Numbered from the stretch's first letter, positions 16,827-28,543 are shown. The stretch: DNA of 28,543 nt from Bdellovibrionales bacterium (GCA_043739185.1 JAYUEN010000500.1:1-28543), one strand, 5' to 3'. Notes: a model not told the origin generated them from the letters alone. Numbers and translations: made by a program.

Positions 16827-17039
16827 TTAATAAAGATCTTCACGGGGACTTTCAATCACTTAAGTAAGAGTGAAAAGCCAATGATCACTATTCGCTTGGT
16901 TTAGAAATAGCAATTTGATCCGATGAGCACCCAGTATGATTAGATATGATGAGATTTGAAATATAATTTAGGTGTAAATGTTTTTTTTTGACAGGCTTCG
17001 CAAAACCATACAGTCAAAGGCTTTCAGAGCTAGGGTTCG

Positions 17040-17055
17040 CGGCCTTAGGCTTGCA
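17040..17055 (+). promoter_or_regulatory. Candidate sigma54 promoter for the PL9 lipoprotein
   Basis: CGGCCT-TAGGC-TTGCA (GG-N10-GC), 33 nt upstream of ATG 17089, with an AGGGGG RBS in between. Confidence 0.45.
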
Positions 17056-17088
17056 AATCTAAGAATCACTAAACCTAGGGGGCATTTA

Positions 17089-19008
17089 ATGAGAATATAT
17101 GGTATTTGGCGAATGCTTGCTGTCAAACTTGTGTTCAAAAATATTCAGGTCTTTTTTAAATGCCTACTCGTTTGCGGAGCCCTGGCTTCATTTATGGGTT
17201 GTGGCGACTCTGGTTTTTCAACTTTGACTGTGAATGCAGGGGCGGCCAAACTCAGTAATTTAGCGACAAATAATAGTTTGCCCGTGCTGTTTCAAAATGC
17301 GCATTCAGGTCTTTGTCTTCACTCGGCTTCAGGCATATTGCAGAGCAACCTAAACCTAGTTCAAGGTGCATGTGATGCTTCAGCTCTCTTGATTTCTGAA
17401 AATGCTTTTGGTTCAAATCTAGAGCTCAGAATTGCCGGGACCGGATATTGTTTAGACGCAGGTTCAAACGCAACTGCAAATGCTTCTCCGGTAAAAATAT
17501 GGTCTTGCGATAATTCATTAGAGCAACGATTCACTCCTTTCGGCTCAAGTTCATTTCGGTCGGTGAGATCCGGCAAGTGTTTCGATATCGGTGGCAGCGG
17601 TAAAGCTCAAATTTGGAGTTGTGATAACTCTGACAATCAATTATTTACTCTTCTGAGTTTAATTTCTCCAACTCCTACGCCGAACCCATCGCCGGTCATT
17701 TCACTTTCTGTTCAAGGAGCTCCTAACTTAGCACTCAACGGAACTTCGACAATGGTTTCAGTTGGCTTTGTTAGTGGAACTCCAATACGTGTCGATTTGT
17801 CTCGTGATGGCTTTCCGACATTTGCAAGTTACCCAGCTGGTTCATTTTTTAGCTTGTCCTCTGACGGAAAATCTCTTACTGGCCAATGGTGTATTTCGAG
17901 CTCATGTTGGGGCAATGTAAGTGGTATTCATATTTTAAATGTTGTTGCCACTTATGCAAATGGGCTAACAGCAAATGCATCCGTGAGTTTAAATGTTGCG
18001 GATTCACAGCCCGCACCAACTCCGGCTCCAACGCCAGTTTCTCTGCCTCCACCAAGTGGAGTTGAGTACACAGGTGTGAGTGCTTCAATGTGGTCTGAGA
18101 TTAATTCAAAGAGATCAAGTTACGGTGATCCTAATGATTGTCAGGCTCGGATCAATGCTCTTCCTACGTCTGGTGGCGTGACTCTGCAACCGGGTGCAGA
18201 TATCAATTCCGCACTTGCAAATAACAATGTGGTTTTTTTATCTGGTGGAACTTATAACTTGAGCAGCCCGATAAATGTGCCTGATGGTAAAAAGCTCATA
18301 GGTATATCGGGCCAGAATGTTATCTTAAATGCAATCAATTCGGATCGGGGAGTGCAGCTAGGCAATAGTGCCGCTGTTGCCAATCTCACCATTGATAGTG
18401 CTGTGACCTTTGGTGCATTAACCTTTCTTCCTGGCTATGGTTATACGAGCAATGCCTTGCTGTACCGACTAGTTATTCGCAATACCGGATACTATAGCGC
18501 TACGAGTGATGGTGGTGAGGGAATATATATCAGCGGTGACGATGCCTCTCAAGTTTCAGCCTACAATTGTATTGTGAGTGTTGATGTATCTAATACTTGG
18601 AATGAAGTGGGCGGAGTCAATGCCAACGGTGGTAATGCGGATGGTATAGATAATAACTATGGCGCTCACGATAATACCTATATTGATATGTATACTCACC
18701 ACAACGGCGATGATGGCTTTGATACATGGCATGGAGGAGTGACTTATGTTTACTTCAGTGCTTCACATGACAACGCGAAGGTGCCGAATAAAGCCAATGC
18801 CGGAAACGGCAATGGATTCAAACTTGGGCCTTCATCTGCAGGCATTTGCGGTAGTGGCGTAGTTCAATATCTGTATAAAGTTTCAGCCTTCAACAACGTG
18901 GCTTACGGTATCGATATCAACGGCAACTTGTATGATCCCGTACTCGACTTTCTCAACTCCTATGGCAACGGATATGGTGCGGACTATACACATACGCCTT
19001 GTCCTTGA
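17089..19008 (+). CDS. Lipoprotein with a ricin-B lectin domain, a beta-sandwich domain and a PL9-type right-handed beta-helix polysaccharide lyase domain
   Basis: Lipobox FMGC; ricin QxW-type repeats (CLD...KIWSC...QRF, CFD...QIWSC...NQLF); Pro/Thr linkers; PL9 motifs GGNADG, NGDDGFD and GNGNGFKLG. Confidence 0.8.
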   Translation: MRIYGIWRMLAVKLVFKNIQVFFKCLLVCGALASFMGCGDSGFSTLTVNAGAAKLSNLATNNSLPVLFQNAHSGLCLHSASGILQSNLNLVQGACDASALLISENAFGSNLELRIAGTGYCLDAGSNATANASPVKIWSCDNSLEQRFTPFGSSSFRSVRSGKCFDIGGSGKAQIWSCDNSDNQLFTLLSLISPTPTPNPSPVISLSVQGAPNLALNGTSTMVSVGFVSGTPIRVDLSRDGFPTFASYPAGSFFSLSSDGKSLTGQWCISSSCWGNVSGIHILNVVATYANGLTANASVSLNVADSQPAPTPAPTPVSLPPPSGVEYTGVSASMWSEINSKRSSYGDPNDCQARINALPTSGGVTLQPGADINSALANNNVVFLSGGTYNLSSPINVPDGKKLIGISGQNVILNAINSDRGVQLGNSAAVANLTIDSAVTFGALTFLPGYGYTSNALLYRLVIRNTGYYSATSDGGEGIYISGDDASQVSAYNCIVSVDVSNTWNEVGGVNANGGNADGIDNNYGAHDNTYIDMYTHHNGDDGFDTWHGGVTYVYFSASHDNAKVPNKANAGNGNGFKLGPSSAGICGSGVVQYLYKVSAFNNVAYGIDINGNLYDPVLDFLNSYGNGYGADYTHTPCP

Positions 19009-20331: not shown

Positions 20332-23001
20332 TCACTCGTCTGCTGGCAAACTCTTTAAAAAATTCAAGCCAACTTTATTGAAAACGGCATGGCCCTCTTT
20401 AGGCCCAAATTTTTGAACGACATATTCCCTTTGCTGAGCGCTCAAATCTTCGAAAGTCGTTTCAGTAACACTTTGAACGCGAACTAAAGCCCGTCGCAGA
20501 CGTTTAATTATTTTGCGAGATGGTTTCTCTCGTTTGATCGAGTAAAGCGGAATCTTTTGGCCGACCACAAAGCATCCATCTTGAGGCCCAATCAAGACTT
20601 CAATTTGCTTTTGGGCCTCAAGTCTTGCCGCGTTTGCAAAGGAAACTTCAATTTCTTTATTGGGCGGCTCGGTTCGACAATCTAAGCTGCGATCAAGCTT
20701 TTCTGTGCTTCGCGCTTCAAAGTGGCTAGGTTCTATAAGCTTTATAGTCTGCAATCCGACGCTAACTATCACGAGACAAAGAATTGCCAATTTGATTTTC
20801 ATGCTTTTAAAAAATTGCGACGTGATCAGAAACAGAAAAGCTAAAACATAAAAAACGGCTGCGCCTTTCATGGTCGCGTAAAAGCCATATTGCAATTGAA
20901 TGTAAATAGCAAAAGGAACTCCCAGAAGAGTTCCTAAATTTTCAATGGTATAGGCTTTTGAACGTTCCTTCCCTTCAAAGTGGCGCAAAAGCCAAATATA
21001 GGGGAGTTCGGCGCAAACTCCGATCGGCGCAATTAGTAAGACAAAAATCAAAACTCGCAATACAGTGTTTTGAAGTCCTAGAATTTGAGTTTTTGCGGCC
21101 TCTAAAATATATGGGACTGCATAAATATAAATCGCTAAGAACAGTAAACTCCATTTAGAAAAAAGTTCAGAAACCTTTAGACCAAGTAGGCCGCCGATAA
21201 TTCCAAAAGCATACATGCTAACAAATAATACGGGTGTCGATAATTGTGGATCTCCTAAATACAAAGACAGCGGACCAATTGCCGCCGATATGAGCAAAAT
21301 GAATCCGGCGCCAATTAAGAAAAGCGACCAAGAATATTCAGACGCCGTAAGCGTATGACTACCGGTTGTATTTATTTTTGAAAAAATCGAAAAGCCTGCG
21401 AAAGCTAAAATTCCCAACAGTATGACCTGGCAACCCTTCAAAAACCACAAAATTAGATCTGAGTTTACGACAAAATAAGGATGTTCATCAATAATCGGAA
21501 ATTTCAGGCTTGATGAAATTTGCTCGGTTGGCAAAACACTCACTTCATTTTCTGCAAATATAGCACGAGTCTCTTCATCAAGTGAAATCTCTTTTTTACA
21601 AAGTAGCAAGCCCTCTCGCACCTTGCGGTTGGCACCATTTGGATTGTTCTTACTTTGGCGATAATTTACAAACAGGCTTTGGCGATCGAAACTTGGCAAG
21701 CTGAGCTCGGCCTTGGCCATTTGCAATACACTCTGCACGAGAGTACTTTGGCGGCCTCCGTTTTGAACACTCCATCTATATTCTTCAATCCAAAGGCAAC
21801 CATCTTCGGTCATGCGTCCCCACAAAGTAAGAAGGGATTCTTTGGTCAAAAGATGAGATTCGAGAAGTGACATATTAATAAAATTACTGTGACTACCGGT
21901 TTGAACTCCTTGCAAAGTGATGAGATCAAATTTTTCAGCTGTGGTTTCAACAAAATGTCTACCTTCGTCGACGACAATTTTTACTTTCGGATCGGTGTAA
22001 ATGCCGCCTGAAAAATCTCGAAGTTGATGGGTCATTATTTCGCTTACGGCAGGATTGATATCGAGTGCAATCACCGAATCTGCATTAAATTTTAGAGCAG
22101 AAATAATGTTGTTGCCTTCAGCTGAGCCAATGACTAAAACTCTTTTAGGTTTTTTAACTAAGTAGGGAACATCATAGCTTGGTATGAATGAAGACTGTTT
22201 GCGATGTTCAACTCGCTCAGCAGAGGCAACCACTGCAAAGCGCCGACCATTGGTTACTATTATGTAGCGATCATCTTCTGTATGAAAAAGGTCGGTGCGA
22301 ATGAGGGGGGTATAAATTGGTGACATTGCTTTTGAAGAAGCCTTGAAACCTTCCAAAAGACTTTCAGTTAAAAGTTTGGGCTCATAAAAACCGCGCATCT
22401 GTAAAATTACGGCAATTGTTGCCGTCAGCGCACAGAGGGCCCACATTTTCTTTTCAAACTTAAAGGCGGCATTTCCGATTGGTAGGAGGATGGCGATCAA
22501 TGCAAGGTAAGGCGCGATCCACTGAAAAAATACGCCCATTATTAAGTAAAGAGCTAGGCCCCCGACTCCGAAGCCAATCACCAATGACTTGAGGTTCAAT
22601 TGGGCATAGCAAGAAGAAAGGTATGCGCCATAGCCCATAAATGGAATTGTTGCCCAGAGTAAGCCTAATTTTGGTTCAAAACAAAATGCCCCTACGGAGA
22701 ATGCTGAAAGTACCGAAGAAATCAGCGCCCATTGATAAGGCGAAAGATTCGAAAGTTTACGGGCGTGAAATATGAGATTTCCGAGCGAAATACCCATGAA
22801 AATTACGACTGGAATAATATTAAGATAAATATCCTGCAGGAGGTAAGTCGCAAAATTATTGATGACGATTTCGGCTAAAAGTAGGCCGGAAGTTCCGATG
22901 CCGAGACTTGAAACATCATTCCAGTTCACGTTGTCGCGAGCAATTGATTTTATTTTGGATTGCTTTTCATTCATTTGATCATTCACTTTTTTATTCGGCA
23001 T
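20332..23001 (-). CDS. Polytopic membrane spermidine synthase-like (aminopropyl/methyltransferase fold) protein with a C-terminal ASCH-like domain
   Basis: N-terminal TM bundle; class I SAM-binding core KRVLVIGSAEG, LDINP, VVDEGRHFV, KFDLI and LLTKE; second TM bundle; soluble C-terminal domain. Start could be 23010, 23001 or 22974. Confidence 0.85.
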   Translation of the reverse strand: MPNKKVNDQMNEKQSKIKSIARDNVNWNDVSSLGIGTSGLLLAEIVINNFATYLLQDIYLNIIPVVIFMGISLGNLIFHARKLSNLSPYQWALISSVLSAFSVGAFCFEPKLGLLWATIPFMGYGAYLSSCYAQLNLKSLVIGFGVGGLALYLIMGVFFQWIAPYLALIAILLPIGNAAFKFEKKMWALCALTATIAVILQMRGFYEPKLLTESLLEGFKASSKAMSPIYTPLIRTDLFHTEDDRYIIVTNGRRFAVVASAERVEHRKQSSFIPSYDVPYLVKKPKRVLVIGSAEGNNIISALKFNADSVIALDINPAVSEIMTHQLRDFSGGIYTDPKVKIVVDEGRHFVETTAEKFDLITLQGVQTGSHSNFINMSLLESHLLTKESLLTLWGRMTEDGCLWIEEYRWSVQNGGRQSTLVQSVLQMAKAELSLPSFDRQSLFVNYRQSKNNPNGANRKVREGLLLCKKEISLDEETRAIFAENEVSVLPTEQISSSLKFPIIDEHPYFVVNSDLILWFLKGCQVILLGILAFAGFSIFSKINTTGSHTLTASEYSWSLFLIGAGFILLISAAIGPLSLYLGDPQLSTPVLFVSMYAFGIIGGLLGLKVSELFSKWSLLFLAIYIYAVPYILEAAKTQILGLQNTVLRVLIFVLLIAPIGVCAELPYIWLLRHFEGKERSKAYTIENLGTLLGVPFAIYIQLQYGFYATMKGAAVFYVLAFLFLITSQFFKSMKIKLAILCLVIVSVGLQTIKLIEPSHFEARSTEKLDRSLDCRTEPPNKEIEVSFANAARLEAQKQIEVLIGPQDGCFVVGQKIPLYSIKREKPSRKIIKRLRRALVRVQSVTETTFEDLSAQQREYVVQKFGPKEGHAVFNKVGLNFLKSLPADE

Positions 23002-23896
23002 TTCGAGCAAATGATATTTTTAATTTTGCCAGGTTTGAGATTTGTAAGTTTTGCGATTTAAATTCAATATTGTTTATCATATTGGCTGATGCTGGCTGTT
23101 CACCGAATTGATGAATTTGAATTTCAAATTGTTTGCAAATAAAAAATTCGAGGATGTAGTGAATGATCACATTGAGCTGGACATTCTTTAGCGTATTGAG
23201 TTCAAAGCTAATATAAGGATGGGGCTCGTCAGGGCTAAAGTGATAGCAATAAAAATCGAGATCTTTGATCGCGTTTATAGAGTATCCAATCGGTTCAAAA
23301 TCGTGGCTATCGACTTGAAAATCCTTCAAATAGCCACTCGTTTCCTTAGCAAAAATTCGAGCAATTCGCTCAGTTGAGCGGGCTTTTAAAAAACTATTTA
23401 GGCAATTACGATCGGGATCAAACATGAGAACTTGAATCGAAGTCGAAAGATTTTCAAAGTGGGTCTTGTCTTTTTGGTAAAATAAACTAAGACCTTTCAG
23501 GTTTGCAATTGAGTCTAACTTTGATTTGAGCAGCTCATAAATTTGAAGTTGAGTTCTTTCAAAATAATGGTCTGGAGATGGCACCAAGCCACGGCGTTGA
23601 TAGGTGACAAAATTAAGTTTGGCATCATTGAAATATTTCAGAATTGATCGAGTGAGGGCTAAAACATCTGCATCGCCACAAGTAATGATTTGGATGCGAT
23701 GGGGTAAAACAAATAGACTTGATTCAGATAAAATAAAGGCTGCAATATTTTCTGTTTTCGTTTCAGAAACAATTTTTATTTTTGCTGGGACCAAAAGCTC
23801 CTTCCAAAAGGAAGTATTATAATTGAGCAAGTTCGGGCCGGAAGCTTCGAAAAAGAAGTCGAGACGCTCTTCGATGTTGTATACTTTATCTGTCAT
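22991..23896 (-). CDS. speD: S-adenosylmethionine decarboxylase proenzyme, eukaryote-like class 2
   Basis: FFFE, pyruvoyl self-cleavage motif ILSESSLFV, TCG, FEPIGYSIN and HFSPDE...YISFE. Start could be 23896, 23908 or 23929. Confidence 0.85.
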   Translation of the reverse strand: MTDKVYNIEERLDFFFEASGPNLLNYNTSFWKELLVPAKIKIVSETKTENIAAFILSESSLFVLPHRIQIITCGDADVLALTRSILKYFNDAKLNFVTYQRRGLVPSPDHYFERTQLQIYELLKSKLDSIANLKGLSLFYQKDKTHFENLSTSIQVLMFDPDRNCLNSFLKARSTERIARIFAKETSGYLKDFQVDSHDFEPIGYSINAIKDLDFYCYHFSPDEPHPYISFELNTLKNVQLNVIIHYILEFFICKQFEIQIHQFGEQPASANMINNIEFKSQNLQISNLAKLKISFARNAE

Positions 23897-24407
23897 TCGA
23901 ACTTTCATTCTTCCAGGGCTGAAATTCATGACTGAGAGTCACGACCTCCGCGGACTTTGTTAACTTACTTGCATCTAAACTATGGTAGAGTTTTAAGATA
24001 CGATACCACATTTTACCTTTTTCTAGATGATAAGCATGATGATAACACAAACAATCGAATTTAAAATCAAGCGCCCTGATGCCGGGCTGAATTTCATGTG
24101 GAGCCACAAAAAAATCAGCCTTCATTTGAGACTTACTTTTTAGTACCAATCCAATGATTTTAGTTTCTCCTGCGGTCATTTCAATTTCGTTGCCTTTAAA
24201 CTCGCGTAGAGGTTCGAGCTGACGAATATCAATGAGGCTACCATTGGTTCCAACCTTATCGGCTCTGGTGGGTGAAAGTTCAAAGCTTTGAACACTAAAA
24301 TCAAGTGGCGTAGAATTACTAAATTTCAGCTTATAAATTGTCTTAGCAAAGCCAGATTGAGCTATCAGCAGGAGAGCAAGGCAAATGTATAAGTAATAAT
24401 TACGCAA
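23886..24407 (-). CDS. Exported Cox11/CtaG-like (Leptospira Lsa20-like) putative copper-binding protein
   Basis: AAGGAG RBS plus TTG at 24407; signal peptide ending GFA; FFVAPH and FKFDCLCYHHAY...WYRI motifs. Confidence 0.7.
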   Translation of the reverse strand: MRNYYLYICLALLLIAQSGFAKTIYKLKFSNSTPLDFSVQSFELSPTRADKVGTNGSLIDIRQLEPLREFKGNEIEMTAGETKIIGLVLKSKSQMKADFFVAPHEIQPGIRALDFKFDCLCYHHAYHLEKGKMWYRILKLYHSLDASKLTKSAEVVTLSHEFQPWKNESSNDR

Positions 24408-24411
24408 GTGC

Positions 24412-25023
24412 TTACTCCTTCTTTTCAGGAGGATCATATAACAATTGTCGATAATCTTTGACTGCTTTTGCCTCAGAAATTTCGATAAGGCTATGCGACA
24501 ACAAAACAAGATCCTGATTCTTCTTAGCAATTTTTGTAAAATCGGCTTCGAGTCTCACAATTCTATACCAAATCATCTTTGCCGGAAGCTTGTAAACATG
24601 GTGATTGCAAAAGCATTCAAAAATGACCCCCATGCTAACATTTCCGGGGTGAAAGGTGTGTGGAGTTGCAAAAAAATATCTAGTGTGGTCAGATTTATTT
24701 TCTACTACTAATACAAAGGTCTTGGCCTTATTTTCCCTTGAAAATGCGAGCTCACTTTTGATGGGTTCAGTAACTGGAATTTCTTTTATTGAACTTGCAA
24801 GCGATGTACGTGCCACCGAAAAGTTAAACTCACTTTTCACATCGTATAGCTTAAGCCGTAAGTCTGTATCTTTGTAGTCGAAGTGCAATTTGACTCGTAG
24901 ATTGAAGTCGGCGCCGTTGACCACGGTACCGATAAACTGGGATGCAATTAAAGCGAATCCCAAGAAACAAATTCTTAATAAATGACTAAAATCGGCAATA
25001 TTGGTCGATAAATAGATTTTCAC
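24412..25023 (-). CDS. Exported Cox11/CtaG-like putative copper-binding protein (paralog)
   Basis: N-terminal hydrophobic segment; YFFATPH and IFECFCNHHVY...WYRI, matching the Cox11 ECFC motif; GTG start with GAGAG upstream. Confidence 0.7.
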   Translation of the reverse strand: MKIYLSTNIADFSHLLRICFLGFALIASQFIGTVVNGADFNLRVKLHFDYKDTDLRLKLYDVKSEFNFSVARTSLASSIKEIPVTEPIKSELAFSRENKAKTFVLVVENKSDHTRYFFATPHTFHPGNVSMGVIFECFCNHHVYKLPAKMIWYRIVRLEADFTKIAKKNQDLVLLSHSLIEISEAKAVKDYRQLLYDPPEKKE

Positions 25024-25066
25024 GTTTGCTCTCTCATGCAGTTAAGAATAATACTAACATTAACAT

Positions 25067-26674
25067 ATGAAACTGACCTTGAAAAACATCGGTATTGCTT
25101 TCATCATTATTTTTCTGGCCGTAGTGGGTATTAAGAAAATGAGAAAACCACATCGCCAGCCTGTGAATGGCAATTCAGCGATTCGCAATGCTGTGCCGGC
25201 AGAAGTTGAAAGTCCAGTTCCTTTGGCTCAAAGTCCCGCGAGCCGAACGCCTTCTCCTTTATTGAAAGCAGCTCCAGTTGCGCCAGTGGTGACTCAGTTG
25301 GCATCAGAACTTGATAATCCCTTTTGTTTGAAGAACGACTTTGTCATTATTCCTTCGATTTATTTACGTGGTTTTTACTATGAAAACGCTTCTATGATCG
25401 CTCTACCTCAATCTTTTGCGAACTGTTTTCAGAAAAACAAGGATCTCGATTTTGTGTTTTTTGAATATCAAGGAGAGCATCAAATACCGTGGCTACACCT
25501 TGTCGGAATGCGCGGACGTATTAAAGACATAAAAAGCTACGTTAATTTTGCAGATCTCAAAAAAAATAGTGATTTTGCTGAAAGTATTATTGATAAATCG
25601 ATCACGCCATTAGTTTATCAGAATATTGGGGCTCATTTTCAACCTTACCTTAATGTGAGATGGGTCGTTGTTTCGATCTCGCGGGACTCAATTGAAGATC
25701 ATCCCGCCTATTGGCCAGAGGCTCCCAAGCTTCATCCTGTAGCTGAGTTTATTTCAGTTGCACAATTCAATGAATTAAAAAATCGTCGAGATGAAAATTT
25801 AATATTTCTCGATGTTCGTTCAAAGCACGCAAAGGAAGAATTTAAATTGCCATTTCAGACGATTGGCCTTCAACATTTTAAGAGAAATTTTGGAGCCTAT
25901 GTTTGGGAGCCTTCACAGCTTGCACAAATTAAATTTTTTTCTGAGCACAATATTATTCACCCACAAAGTCGATTTGTGGTAATTGCTGGCAATAGTTTCG
26001 ATGTTGGAGCAATCAATGCCGCGAACTTTTTGACCGAGAAGGGCTATCGTTCAATTTATATTTTGAAAGAGGGCGCCGCCGGTTTGGGAGGGCCTCCTGC
26101 ACGTCCGTTAAAAAATCTGCTTCATGTGATTGATGTCGATGGGCTTAAACGAATGTTAGAGAGCGAGCCTCAAAAAACTTTGGTCGTGGATTGTCGCGTT
26201 GGCGGACAAAAACATATTTTGATTCCGAATTCGGTCACGGTACAACAATCTGAGGCAGAAGACGGGCATCACAAGATTGATATTACTCCGGTTTCACAAA
26301 TGATCTCCAAGCTTGCGCCACATGCTATCGTTTTTGTCGGTCACTCTGATCATGATAATATGCCAGAACAAATTGCTAGCATGCTCAGCGAGAAGGGCAC
26401 AAATTTTTATAAATTGCGTGATGGTTTCAAGGCTTGGAAATTTTATTCCAACTATAAATGGGATGCCAAAGCAAAAAAAATTCTACATAGGACGTCCGCA
26501 AGGGCCCATATGTCGCCGCCTCATTTTCGGACGAATAACCCTATTAAAGCACCAATTAGAATAGATCCCGTAAAAGTCTATGGACCTCGAGTGGTCAAGC
26601 CTCAAAGAGTTAGGCCTGAAGAGATTGAGCAAATCAAAAGAAACAATCGTCTTCCTTCTCCTGTTAAACATTGA
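25067..26674 (+). CDS. Membrane-anchored protein with two rhodanese-like domains (active-site Cys absent)
   Basis: N-terminal TM and Pro/Ala linker; rhodanese patterns FLDVRS...AANFLTEKGYRSIYILKEG and VVDCR...YKLRDGFKAW. Confidence 0.8.
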   Translation: MKLTLKNIGIAFIIIFLAVVGIKKMRKPHRQPVNGNSAIRNAVPAEVESPVPLAQSPASRTPSPLLKAAPVAPVVTQLASELDNPFCLKNDFVIIPSIYLRGFYYENASMIALPQSFANCFQKNKDLDFVFFEYQGEHQIPWLHLVGMRGRIKDIKSYVNFADLKKNSDFAESIIDKSITPLVYQNIGAHFQPYLNVRWVVVSISRDSIEDHPAYWPEAPKLHPVAEFISVAQFNELKNRRDENLIFLDVRSKHAKEEFKLPFQTIGLQHFKRNFGAYVWEPSQLAQIKFFSEHNIIHPQSRFVVIAGNSFDVGAINAANFLTEKGYRSIYILKEGAAGLGGPPARPLKNLLHVIDVDGLKRMLESEPQKTLVVDCRVGGQKHILIPNSVTVQQSEAEDGHHKIDITPVSQMISKLAPHAIVFVGHSDHDNMPEQIASMLSEKGTNFYKLRDGFKAWKFYSNYKWDAKAKKILHRTSARAHMSPPHFRTNNPIKAPIRIDPVKVYGPRVVKPQRVRPEEIEQIKRNNRLPSPVKH

Positions 26675-26692
26675 TGAATTTTAGATAGTTAC

Positions 26693-28006
26693 TTAGTTCA
26701 AACGAACCAGGCCGTGATTGTCGATGTTAAAGAAAATCGCACCTTCGTTCACAGTAAAAGATCCACTGATAAATCCGCCCACTTCAATTTTTTGCAATGG
26801 CTTTAATGTTGCCGCATTAAAAAAGCAAACTTTTGTATTTTCACAAGAACTTACTAAATATGTTTCTTTCTTTGATTTAATGATGATTGGGCTGGGAACG
26901 CTATAGCGATTTTTAAGGCCGACTTCATTTAAAGGAGTTTGTTGGACAATTTTTCGAGAGGCAAGACTGATTTTGTAGATACTTCCAGATGAGCTTGAAA
27001 CATAGATGAGTTGATTTTCCTCATCTAATGCCGGGCTCGACTGGGAGGCGGCCTCAAGTGAGACTGAAAAAAGCTTTTCTCCGTTATGTGAGCTTACGCA
27101 ATTTAAACTCTTGTCCCAAGACCCAAAGCAAAATTGCCCTTTGTAAAATACTGCGGTTCCCTTGATGGGCCCATCTGTCATGAGTTTCCAAAGCGTGTGA
27201 CCGGTTTCGGCGTCAAGTCCCCAAAAAACTCCGGTATTGCTGCCAACACCAATAATTTTATTGGCTTCATCTAAAGTGGGTGAGGAATGCACTTGTTCTT
27301 CAAAATATTCGGAGACCCAAATCTTTTTTCCGCTATGGCGATTAAGTGCCACGGCATATCCTTGTAGCGGCTGGCCGAATTCAGCCGAGAAAATAACTTT
27401 ATCTTTATACAATAGAGGCGAGGAGCCGATGGCATTGGCTATCGTCGTCGTCCAAACTAATTCACCATTACTCTTATCAAGGCAGTAAAAATTGCCATTG
27501 TAGTTACCGAAGTATACATAGTCTTCGTCAACCAATGCAGTGCCGTGAATCCCTTGCTGGCCACTTTCTGTTTGAAAGCTCCAAATCAAATTTCCGGCAA
27601 GAGTATATTTATAAAAGATACCTAAATCCGTTCCGAAATAAACTCCCGACGAATCAACTGCAGGAGTTGATTTTGAAGCGTTGTGAATTCCTCCAAATAG
27701 TTTATCGATGTGGTAAGTAATGCCTTTTGGCAATTTAAAATTGTTGACTCGATAGGCTCCACTGCGACTGGTGTCGTTTCGGTAAATAGAGGTTAAGTTT
27801 TTTGCGGTTGTCGATGACTTAGTAAAGCCAACAATATTGAAAAAATCTTGAGCTCTGGGATTGAAGATAACTTCATCTTGTAAATGTCGAATCACAGGCA
27901 ATACATTGAGGAAAAAAGTAACGACGATAGTGACGAGTAAGAAAAGTGCCAGCAGTCTTATAAAATCGCCGCGATTGTTTCTGACTATTTTGGCCAAATC
28001 TTGCAT
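26693..28006 (-). CDS. PQQ-binding-like (BamB-type) beta-propeller protein with an N-terminal membrane anchor
   Basis: Repeated SSP...G...LD..G...W blades (STPAVD, SSPLL, SSPTLD, SSPALD); AAGGA RBS. Confidence 0.88.
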   Translation of the reverse strand: MQDLAKIVRNNRGDFIRLLALFLLVTIVVTFFLNVLPVIRHLQDEVIFNPRAQDFFNIVGFTKSSTTAKNLTSIYRNDTSRSGAYRVNNFKLPKGITYHIDKLFGGIHNASKSTPAVDSSGVYFGTDLGIFYKYTLAGNLIWSFQTESGQQGIHGTALVDEDYVYFGNYNGNFYCLDKSNGELVWTTTIANAIGSSPLLYKDKVIFSAEFGQPLQGYAVALNRHSGKKIWVSEYFEEQVHSSPTLDEANKIIGVGSNTGVFWGLDAETGHTLWKLMTDGPIKGTAVFYKGQFCFGSWDKSLNCVSSHNGEKLFSVSLEAASQSSPALDEENQLIYVSSSSGSIYKISLASRKIVQQTPLNEVGLKNRYSVPSPIIIKSKKETYLVSSCENTKVCFFNAATLKPLQKIEVGGFISGSFTVNEGAIFFNIDNHGLVRLN

Positions 28007-28542
28007 ATGTCCTTTTCCCGTACGATGACTAGATTATCAATGTCTGAAAATTGTCTTGAAACCAAATGTGCCTCGAGCGATCGCACGCGGGCGCTTTTAT
28101 TTTGACAAATATGTCGAGCTTGCTCGTAGAAAATTATGGGGTCACATTTGACTCTAGAGGCTAACTCCTCATTTTGAAAATCCAATTCAGTTGTTTGACT
28201 ATCCTCATGCGCAAAGAATACGCCTCGACACATGCTTCGCGCATCAAACATATTGAGGCTCCACAGACGAGATTGACTACCCAAGGCTTTTGCACGCGAA
28301 TTGTTGAGGGAGCTAATTTGCATAAAAATAAAAATGAGCCAAGAGATGGAGCCAAGCAAAAAACTAAGACTGCGAAACTGAATTTTGGTTTCCGTTCGAG
28401 GGGAAAACAAATCTATGAAAAAAAATGCCAGGAGACTTAACATGACGGCAGGGTAAAAAAAGCCGACCCAGTAATATGAAGCGATATGAAAGACGAATAG
28501 GAAGGCAAGGCCGCCCACTCGAAATCTAAAGTTTTTAAAGCT
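27985..28542 (-). CDS. 5'-partial HTTM / vitamin K-dependent gamma-carboxylase-like membrane protein
   Basis: Frame is open to the window edge; FHIASYYWVGFFYP..M and SRLWSLNMFD resemble HTTM/VKGC FH...G.FP..M and EG..FSWRM; C-terminal soluble domain with four Cys. Confidence 0.6.
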   Translation of the reverse strand, partial: SFKNFRFRVGGLAFLFVFHIASYYWVGFFYPAVMLSLLAFFFIDLFSPRTETKIQFRSLSFLLGSISWLIFIFMQISSLNNSRAKALGSQSRLWSLNMFDARSMCRGVFFAHEDSQTTELDFQNEELASRVKCDPIIFYEQARHICQNKSARVRSLEAHLVSRQFSDIDNLVIVREKDICKIWPK

Positions 28543-28543
28543 A

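Follow-up and report, generated by a model that had tools for sequence, protein, structure and literature searches.

Introduction

Pili are central to prey attachment by Bdellovibrio, and type IV pilins are decorated by phosphoethanolamine transfer and by glycosylation. An S-adenosylmethionine decarboxylase (AdoMetDC) paired with a fusion of a major facilitator superfamily (MFS) protein and a spermidine synthase-like (SpdSyn-like) domain, with a role outside polyamine synthesis, was reportedly described by Li et al. in 2019. Here, we analyze a block of seven genes at positions 20332 to 28543 of a Bdellovibrionales contig (GCA_043739185.1, JAYUEN010000500.1:1-28543) in which a pair of this kind adjoins genes for Cox11-fold, rhodanese-like, β-propeller, and vitamin K-dependent γ-carboxylase (VKGC)-like proteins. 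The window, meaning the whole stretch analyzed, is 28,543 nucleotides long and comprises all of contig C500 of this genome (G000; completeness, 97.65%). The block is very probably the lower half of a conserved, pilin-linked gene cluster of Bdellovibrionales.

Several described systems resemble parts of the block. A fusion of seven transmembrane helices with a spermidine synthase-like domain is known (PMC11237479). The vitamin K-dependent carboxylase family includes human GGCX, MloH, and pairs of HTTM and DUF5819 proteins such as SdpB/SdpA, and MloH carboxylates aspartate (PMC12186529; bioRxiv 10.64898/2026.08.19.745780). Cox11 forms a dimer bridged through its CxC motifs by a Cu2S4 cluster, and TlpA reduces copper chaperones (PMC6696091).

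Results

The final 98 nucleotides of the window are identical to the first 98 nucleotides of a second contig of the same genome, C471, so the window shows just the lower half of a cluster. The VKGC/HTTM-like membrane protein gene that is cut at the window end (27985 to 28543, minus strand) has its 5' part at G000:C471:1-706. Ahead of it lie genes for a pentapeptide-repeat protein, three prepilin-like proteins, and a CxxC thioredoxin, and C471 also carries genes for an MBOAT-like protein and for a second HTTM-like protein. Of the three prepilins, the one closest to the window has a C-terminal tail of Gly, Asp, and Cys that contains three DG(G)C-like or DG units. The N termini of all three prepilin-like proteins look by eye like the class III signal GFxxxE, and the type IV prepilin model for this signal (TIGR02532) matched 7 of 15 cluster pilins, four of them over its cutoff, and none of the three in G000.

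Of 384 genomes of the order, 27 encode the family to which the two Cox11-fold proteins of the window belong, as do 8 of 351 genomes in a sample of the phylum. Wide regions were taken from 25 of the other 26 order genomes, with G081 (a weak hit in a long frame) and G315 (a weak hit on a 2-kb contig) left out. Metagenomes contributed three further loci, and another three were combined with the genome loci that they duplicate, giving 31 Cox11-fold loci, of which L013 and L078 are the same sequence. The stretches span 3.6 to 20 kb and many are ended by contig ends, which makes absences in the tally soft. Prepilins occur in 27 of the 31 loci, a Gly/Asp-rich tail in 22, a thioredoxin in 22, VKGC-like genes in 20, rhodanese-like genes in 17, pentapeptide genes in 15, propeller genes in 13, and genes for a sulfatase-like membrane protein in 9. 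In most loci with pentapeptide and VKGC-like genes, the tailed pilin lies directly upstream of these two. Three prepilins, the Cox11-fold pair, and the tail are also found together in a genome from another order of the same phylum (G527). A literature search limited largely to articles outside the subscription journals found no account of this pilin cluster.

AdoMetDC and the MFS/SpeE-fold fusion protein (here, the transferase) occur in one of the 31 loci, that of the window, and in none of the stretches taken from the 30 others, a count that is clear in spite of the contig ends. The initial annotation, which was made from the window sequence, had taken the whole block for an envelope aminopropylation system and proposed a gene-neighborhood comparison. 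That comparison gave a divided answer: the genes other than the aminopropyl pair are indeed co-located in many genomes, and the pair does not travel with them. With the core organized around prepilins that lie outside the window, and with no Cox11-fold, propeller, rhodanese, VKGC-like, or prepilin genes near any of nine other transferase loci, the block-wide interpretation is not supported.

The motif in the pilin tail varies with the enzymes encoded nearby. When loci were grouped by gene content, which was done after the tails had been seen, DG(G)C marked a pilin tail in 13 of 14 loci with pentapeptide and short VKGC-like genes, none of which had GDC, and loci with a membrane protein family of 780 to 1065 residues had GDC in 6 of 7 cases and DG(G)C in none; the six remaining loci had DG(G)C once and GDC never. 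One genome, G237, holds one locus of each type. Such a pattern is what would be expected of a relation between substrate and enzyme. In G000, the tail is present on 1 of 14 open reading frames (ORFs) of this pilin family, and among 3998 ORFs of at least 150 residues we found five that bear such a tail, two of them beside VKGC-like/propeller genes.

Other tails and enzymes of these kinds were encountered. The 780- to 1065-residue family (L056:6904-9654, L057:6925-9738, L059:10741-13473, L061:12241-14586, L065:14997-17342, and L144:12049-15246) had no useful match in Pfam or the PDB; our impression, and it is an impression only, is of a GT-C glycosyltransferase. Elsewhere in G000, in the set L010/L011, one VKGC-like/propeller pair (C470:13978-17777) adjoins a lipoprotein-like ORF with a short terminal Gly/Asp tail, and another (C180:29289-32238) adjoins a pentapeptide gene. 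Other exported or small Gly/Asp-tailed proteins lie away from the cluster enzymes (G000 C465:30634-31155 and C39:2171-2425; L054:2676-3476).

Within the window, the layout of the initial annotation was borne out. Four genes on the minus strand run from Cox11-fold protein A (24412 to 25023) through Cox11-fold protein B (23886 to 24407) and AdoMetDC (22991 to 23896) to the transferase (20332 to 23001). The ORFs for A and B start with GTG and TTG, respectively, and are separated by a 4-nucleotide gap, which is followed by two 11-nucleotide ATG-N5-TAA overlaps downstream. The divergent rhodanese-like gene (25067 to 26674, plus strand) and the propeller gene (26693 to 28006, minus strand), overlapped for 22 nucleotides by the VKGC-like gene, are placed as claimed. 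The statement that all products except AdoMetDC have a signal peptide or transmembrane helices likewise agrees with hydropathy over 19 residues, which reaches at most 1.24 in AdoMetDC and exceeds 1.6 in every other product. The aminopropyl pair is a variable addition, and the remaining five genes belong to the core. Promoter-like sites are at chance level (18 versus 18.6 expected), and of the terminator-like sites (13 versus 7.9) none lies clearly at an operon end.

Both small core proteins match NF047614, the Leptospira Lsa20 family, below its cutoff (E values of 1e-28 for A and 7e-20 for B). A has an N-terminal hydrophobic segment and a CxC motif at residues 137/139; B has a signal peptide and CxC at 119/121. 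Among 40 aligned relatives, 39 share the motif. The Cox11-like call of the initial annotation stands at the level of fold: the predicted structure of A (predicted local distance difference test [pLDDT], 92.3) had apoCox11 (1sp0) as its best match among 48,161 chains, with Z of 8.6 and a root mean square deviation (rmsd) of 3.0 over 116 residues, the next match having Z of 6.1. Foldseek gave no match for A at an E value of 0.001. The Cox11/CtaG family PF04442 did not match the window copies and matched 6 of 40 relatives weakly (best E value, 1.8e-4), and no cytochrome oxidase genes were recognized in the Cox11-fold loci examined; orthology to the Cox11 of oxidase assembly was rejected. Cox11-fold relatives were absent from plasmids in both DNA and protein searches, and no sequence of a solved structure was matched by the profile of either the Cox11-fold or the VKGC-like family. 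The dimeric state of Cox11 and the reducing role of TlpA (PMC6696091) fit a tandem Cox11-fold pair accompanied by a thioredoxin.

For the VKGC-like protein, a full-length homologue (L013) was compared with predicted models and reached a template modeling (TM) score of 0.78 over 349 residues to a cluster combining HTTM and VKGC-lumenal domains, both sides of the comparison being predicted models, which agrees with the HTTM/VKGC-like assignment made initially. The membrane part has a conserved histidine and a lysine that is shared by 14 of the 15 aligned sequences spanning its position. This lysine may be the equivalent of the catalytic K218 of GGCX. The profile of the family did not match an SdpB-like protein, and the family had no match to an SdpB profile. 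The neighboring membrane-anchored propeller, of pyrroloquinoline quinone (PQQ)/BamB type (PF13360; E value, 8e-23), has six residues invariant in 14 of 14 relatives (His108, His154, His240, Glu209, Lys112, and Gln238), most of which occupy equivalent positions on consecutive blades, and its central channel may hold a metal or ligand site. Identification as BamB or as a PQQ dehydrogenase was rejected (NCBIfam scores of 73.3 versus a cutoff of 285 for BamB and 51.8 versus a cutoff of 480 for PQQ ADH); a BamB-like gene is present elsewhere in G000. The VKGC-like protein and the propeller are predicted to be partners: the L013 pair scored 0.69 in complex prediction, with 0.00 for the best of three controls, at least 79% of contacts shared between runs, and partner pLDDT of at least 80. 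Of 157 solved pairs, 116 attained this level, as did 2 of 215 mismatched pairs, counts that are a rough guide for the alignments used here.

The rhodanese-like protein, of 535 residues, is membrane anchored and has two domains (PF00581; E value, 1e-9). No cysteine occupies either active-loop position, and none is conserved there among 21 relatives; sulfurtransferase activity was therefore rejected for want of the active-site cysteine, and a scaffold or binding role is inferred.

The class-2 (eukaryote-type) AdoMetDC, 301 residues long, is divergent, and its identification in the initial annotation was upheld by PF01536 (E value, 4e-35; 121.9 bits versus a cutoff of 22.2) and by the self-cleavage pair Glu58/Ser59, which is in register with the human enzyme (1msv). 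It keeps Cys73, Phe200, Ser206, and His219, has Asp at the position of E247, and has Val at the position of F7, or Tyr with a shift of one residue. The human catalytic and substrate residues used in this comparison are C82, F223, S229, H243, E247, and F7. The branch of the window enzyme is long (4.67) and its N-terminal motif altered; since long branches meet in what is a quick tree, no origin is drawn from it. There is one close cluster of relatives, at 62% identity. Enzymes of class 2 are widespread in the order (138 of 384 genomes) and rare in this family (2 of 34), and in 27 of the best 30 loci of the order they adjoin a soluble SpeE. Outside the window, such an AdoMetDC lies next to a transferase only in G022, in the reverse order and in a different cluster. 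Among other decarboxylases, two class-1 AdoMetDC-like ORFs in G000 (C387:237-707 and C405:9396-9836) have Asp-Ser for the usual Glu-Ser and belong to a cassette that occurs in duplicate and includes a glucoamylase-like gene, and L121, L122, and L123 (from G130, G178, and G203) encode SpeD-SpeE fusions of ~430 residues.

The transferase, of 889 residues, is modeled (pLDDT, 82.5) as six helices, a SpeE-fold domain (residues ~210 to 505), six further helices, and a small C-terminal domain. The helices form an MFS fold (Z of 26.8 to SV2A, with rmsd of 3.7 over 325 residues, and 23.8 to NorC), and the insert resembles Thermus thermophilus SpeE (1uir; Z of 22.0; Foldseek E value, 2.7e-8). PF01564 matches over residues 285 to 366 only (E value, 8e-10), and the scores against the NCBIfam speE models, 36.7 to 41.2 bits, fall short of cutoffs of 250 to 260. 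Gln364 and Gln367 (QxxQ) replace the DxxD of the amine site in 21 of 21 transferase relatives, and all 27 soluble SpeE proteins have DxxD/E. G000 encodes a separate SpeE with GGGDG and DxxD. Together, these observations support the initial view that the product is something other than free spermidine.

Motif I of the transferase reads GSAEG. Its acid is kept in the window copy and in 16 of 21 relatives, with Gly in the other 5, and the glycines are not kept; in characterized enzymes the motif is hhhhGGG(D/E)G, and the acid marks binding of decarboxylated S-adenosylmethionine (dcAdoMet) (PMC11107197). Members of the transferase subfamily were detected in 9 of the order's 384 genomes. Of 9 copies from 8 genomes, 7 carry the dcAdoMet-type Glu, each in a genome that also encodes AdoMetDC, and the 2 copies that lack it come from genomes that are 94 to 95% complete and in which no AdoMetDC was found; this covariation, which supports the initial proposal of a dcAdoMet-using transferase, involves small numbers and a decarboxylase that is widespread in the order. 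A tenth copy, a fragment, comes from an 81% complete genome (G168) in which no AdoMetDC was found.

Some relatives of the transferase lie in other gene settings. Two more membrane proteins with SpeE-like domains are encoded in G000 (C330:978-3467 and C72:18506-20944), outside the subfamily of the window protein. L020 and L129 (G022:C43) hold the transferase and degenerate AdoMetDC of G022 with two FG-GAP/ASPIC and RnfD-like pairs, an MBOAT gene, an AMP-ligase gene, and an SdpB-like gene. In G168, the transferase (L127:1667-3274) is followed by an MBOAT gene and an 80-residue ORF that looks acyl-carrier-like by eye, an arrangement resembling a Dlt-like relay.

Two features outside the block were also recorded. 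The plus-strand ORF at 16978 to 19008 encodes an exported protein of 676 residues with ricin-type β-trefoil lectin repeats and a weak pectate-lyase-like β-helix match. Positions 136 to 204 hold a ~65-nucleotide repeat that is scattered over many G000 contigs at 75 to 98% identity and may be an element like a repetitive extragenic palindrome (REP) or a non-coding RNA.

Discussion

Gene content, folds, co-occurrence, and the covariation of tail motif with enzyme set are established by sequence, structure prediction, and genome comparison. We consider it an even bet that they describe a periplasmic system for pilin-tail maturation with an optional aminopropyl make-and-export module, the chemical steps of which we infer throughout. 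Three minor prepilins would be inserted in the inner membrane, with the Asp/Gly/Cys tail of one in the periplasm, where the VKGC-like protein and the His-rich propeller could act as a two-subunit membrane enzyme on the DG(G)C repeats. Our leading guesses for the chemistry are carboxylation of Asp, as in MloH, and oxidation or cross-linking of Asp/Cys. The Cox11-fold pair, reduced by the TlpA-like thioredoxin, may bind Cu(I) through CxC and load either the His-rich site or the tail cysteines. A variable slot would add decoration, supplied elsewhere by the sulfatase-like protein, by MBOAT and AMP-ligase, or by the 780- to 1065-residue membrane family. In this genome, AdoMetDC would provide dcAdoMet, and the MFS-SpeE-like fusion would aminopropylate a non-amine acceptor at the cytoplasmic side and move the product across the membrane. 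That the cluster modifies the tail seems slightly favored; that the aminopropyl module is functionally linked to the pilins is a tentative suggestion, which we rather doubt. The fullest version, a maturation like that of RiPPs (peptides made by ribosomes and modified after translation) in which a copper-loaded VKGC-like/propeller enzyme makes a new covalent DG(G)C modification and swappable modules tune the surface and prey attachment, is speculative, and we think it unlikely, within sight of plausible.

Several observations count against pilin-tail maturation as proposed. Pfam HTTM (PF05090) matches none of 16 VKGC-like members, the family profile finds no solved GGCX, and the assignment to VKGC depends on an Atlas model; the complex with the propeller was predicted for the L013 pair, not for the proteins of the window. 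No VKGC-like gene lies in the stretch covered at 11 of 31 loci, some of which still bear the tail, a lone Cox11-fold gene occurs in G066, and no tail-bearing neighbor was found for the VKGC-like/propeller pair on C180 of G000. The loci are kin rather than independent, and the tail covariation may partly reflect descent. On the side of the aminopropyl module, the pair is missing from all 30 other loci, the AdoMetDC of G022 is degenerate in its C-terminal half, and the SpeE-fold domain is expected to be cytoplasmic, with no direct access to the pilin tail. In MFS proteins the central loop is cytoplasmic; a domain placed there would have no contact with a tail in the periplasm, which leaves make-and-export as the simpler interpretation.

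In the main rival, AdoMetDC and the MFS-SpeE fusion would be an independent cassette, inserted at the end of the pilin cluster, that makes a small molecule or lipid head group in aminopropylated form and exports it, which is compatible with a pilin-tail function of the core. We regard this as a substantial possibility, somewhat short of even. It would account for the absence of either gene from the 30 other Cox11-fold loci, for the absence of core genes from nine other transferase loci, and for the reversed pair of G022 in its different cluster. It sits less well with the translational coupling of the pair to the Cox11-fold genes and with the 62–63% relatives of AdoMetDC and Cox11-fold A, which seem, judged from sizes alone, to share contigs (33912 and 6094 bases) and thereby suggest a second linked lineage. 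Moreover, the G168 transferase abuts a homologue of the MBOAT of this cluster (E value, 4.5e-33), genes for MBOAT, AMP-ligase, and SdpB-like proteins are likewise present in the G022 cluster, and 3 of the 9 other transferase loci lie on contigs of 2 to 5 kb. At the opposite extreme, all seven genes could form one system devoted to aminopropylation at the envelope, with the copper and redox genes in the service of the transferase, as initially annotated. Tight gene coupling in this genome and a transferase that has the dcAdoMet-type Glu and is unlikely to use putrescine speak for such a system, yet none of the 30 other loci in which copper, propeller, rhodanese, or VKGC-like genes recur has an aminopropyl gene, most of them have prepilins, and we consider such a system distinctly improbable.

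Doubts can also be raised about individual activities. The SpeE-fold domain might use AdoMet itself, for methyl or aminocarboxypropyl transfer, with the pyruvoyl enzyme decarboxylating another substrate or acting afterwards. The glycine at the motif-I acid in 5 of 21 relatives, GSAEG instead of hhhhGGG(D/E)G (PMC11107197), the long AdoMetDC branch with its altered N-terminal motif, and the known ability of pyruvoyl decarboxylases to switch substrate (PMC10407285) would be consistent with this; retention of the Glu in the window copy, and its match to AdoMetDC presence (7 of 7 copies with Glu, 2 of 2 copies without), make it unlikely. Plain spermidine synthesis could be suspected from the 27 of the best 30 loci in which class-2 AdoMetDC stands beside a soluble SpeE, except that those SpeE proteins all have GGGDG with DxxD/E, and Asp173 of human spermidine synthase deprotonates putrescine (PMC10968388). 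With QxxQ in 21 of 21 relatives, we rejected this function as very improbable. Finally, the core may be a kit for assembly or metal loading. The tail would then serve as a binding site for Ca or Cu, the Cox11-fold proteins would be pilus-associated adhesins or chaperones, and the VKGC-like protein would have a different substrate. In G012b, G156, G173, and G112a, where no VKGC-like gene is shown, Cox11-fold pairs lie interspersed among prepilins, the tail in G112b is almost pure Gly, and NF047614 is named for an adhesin (Lsa20 of Leptospira). The change of tail motif with the enzyme set, and the place of the tailed pilin directly upstream of pentapeptide and VKGC-like genes in most loci of that type, favor modification of the tail, and we judge an assembly kit to be rather unlikely.

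Few substrates are known for bacterial VKGC/HTTM proteins. A pilin tail encoded beside the candidate enzyme, with a motif that varies with the enzyme set, makes the chemistry testable, and a β-propeller is now a predicted partner of a VKGC-like enzyme. The Lsa20 family acquires the Cox11 fold and, possibly, a role with copper, the MFS-SpeE fusion with QxxQ offers a tractable case for what such fusions aminopropylate, and a modified pilus component could bear on prey attachment.

Every part of the cluster has known kin, from pilin decoration to VKGC-type tailoring. As in described type IV pilin decoration, membrane enzymes would work on the periplasmic parts of prepilins, and a sulfatase-like enzyme accompanies 9 of 31 loci; the difference lies in a dedicated Asp/Gly/Cys tail on a minor pilin and in the VKGC-like/propeller/Cox11-fold core. 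With the VKGC family, the cluster shares a predicted fold with a fused lumenal domain and an Asp-rich candidate substrate, and it has a conserved Lys and His in the membrane part, whereas it differs in the lack of Pfam HTTM and SdpB matches, in the predicted β-propeller partner, and in having a pilin tail as the would-be substrate. The Cox11-fold proteins resemble Cox11/CtaG, with its TlpA partner, in fold, CxC, exported location, and a nearby CxxC thioredoxin, and depart from it as tandem paralogues with 12% identity to Cox11 in loci without recognized oxidase genes. By sequence, the best family for both is that of Leptospira Lsa20/LIC11469, although the window proteins fall below its curated cutoff. 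Finally, the variable pair is like the MFS-SpdSyn-like fusions reportedly paired with AdoMetDC in joining an MFS membrane part to a SpeE fold beside AdoMetDC, with a role outside spermidine synthesis, and unlike them in carrying the SpeE fold between two six-helix halves, in its QxxQ, and in standing beside a pilin cluster rather than DUF350/DUF4178 genes.

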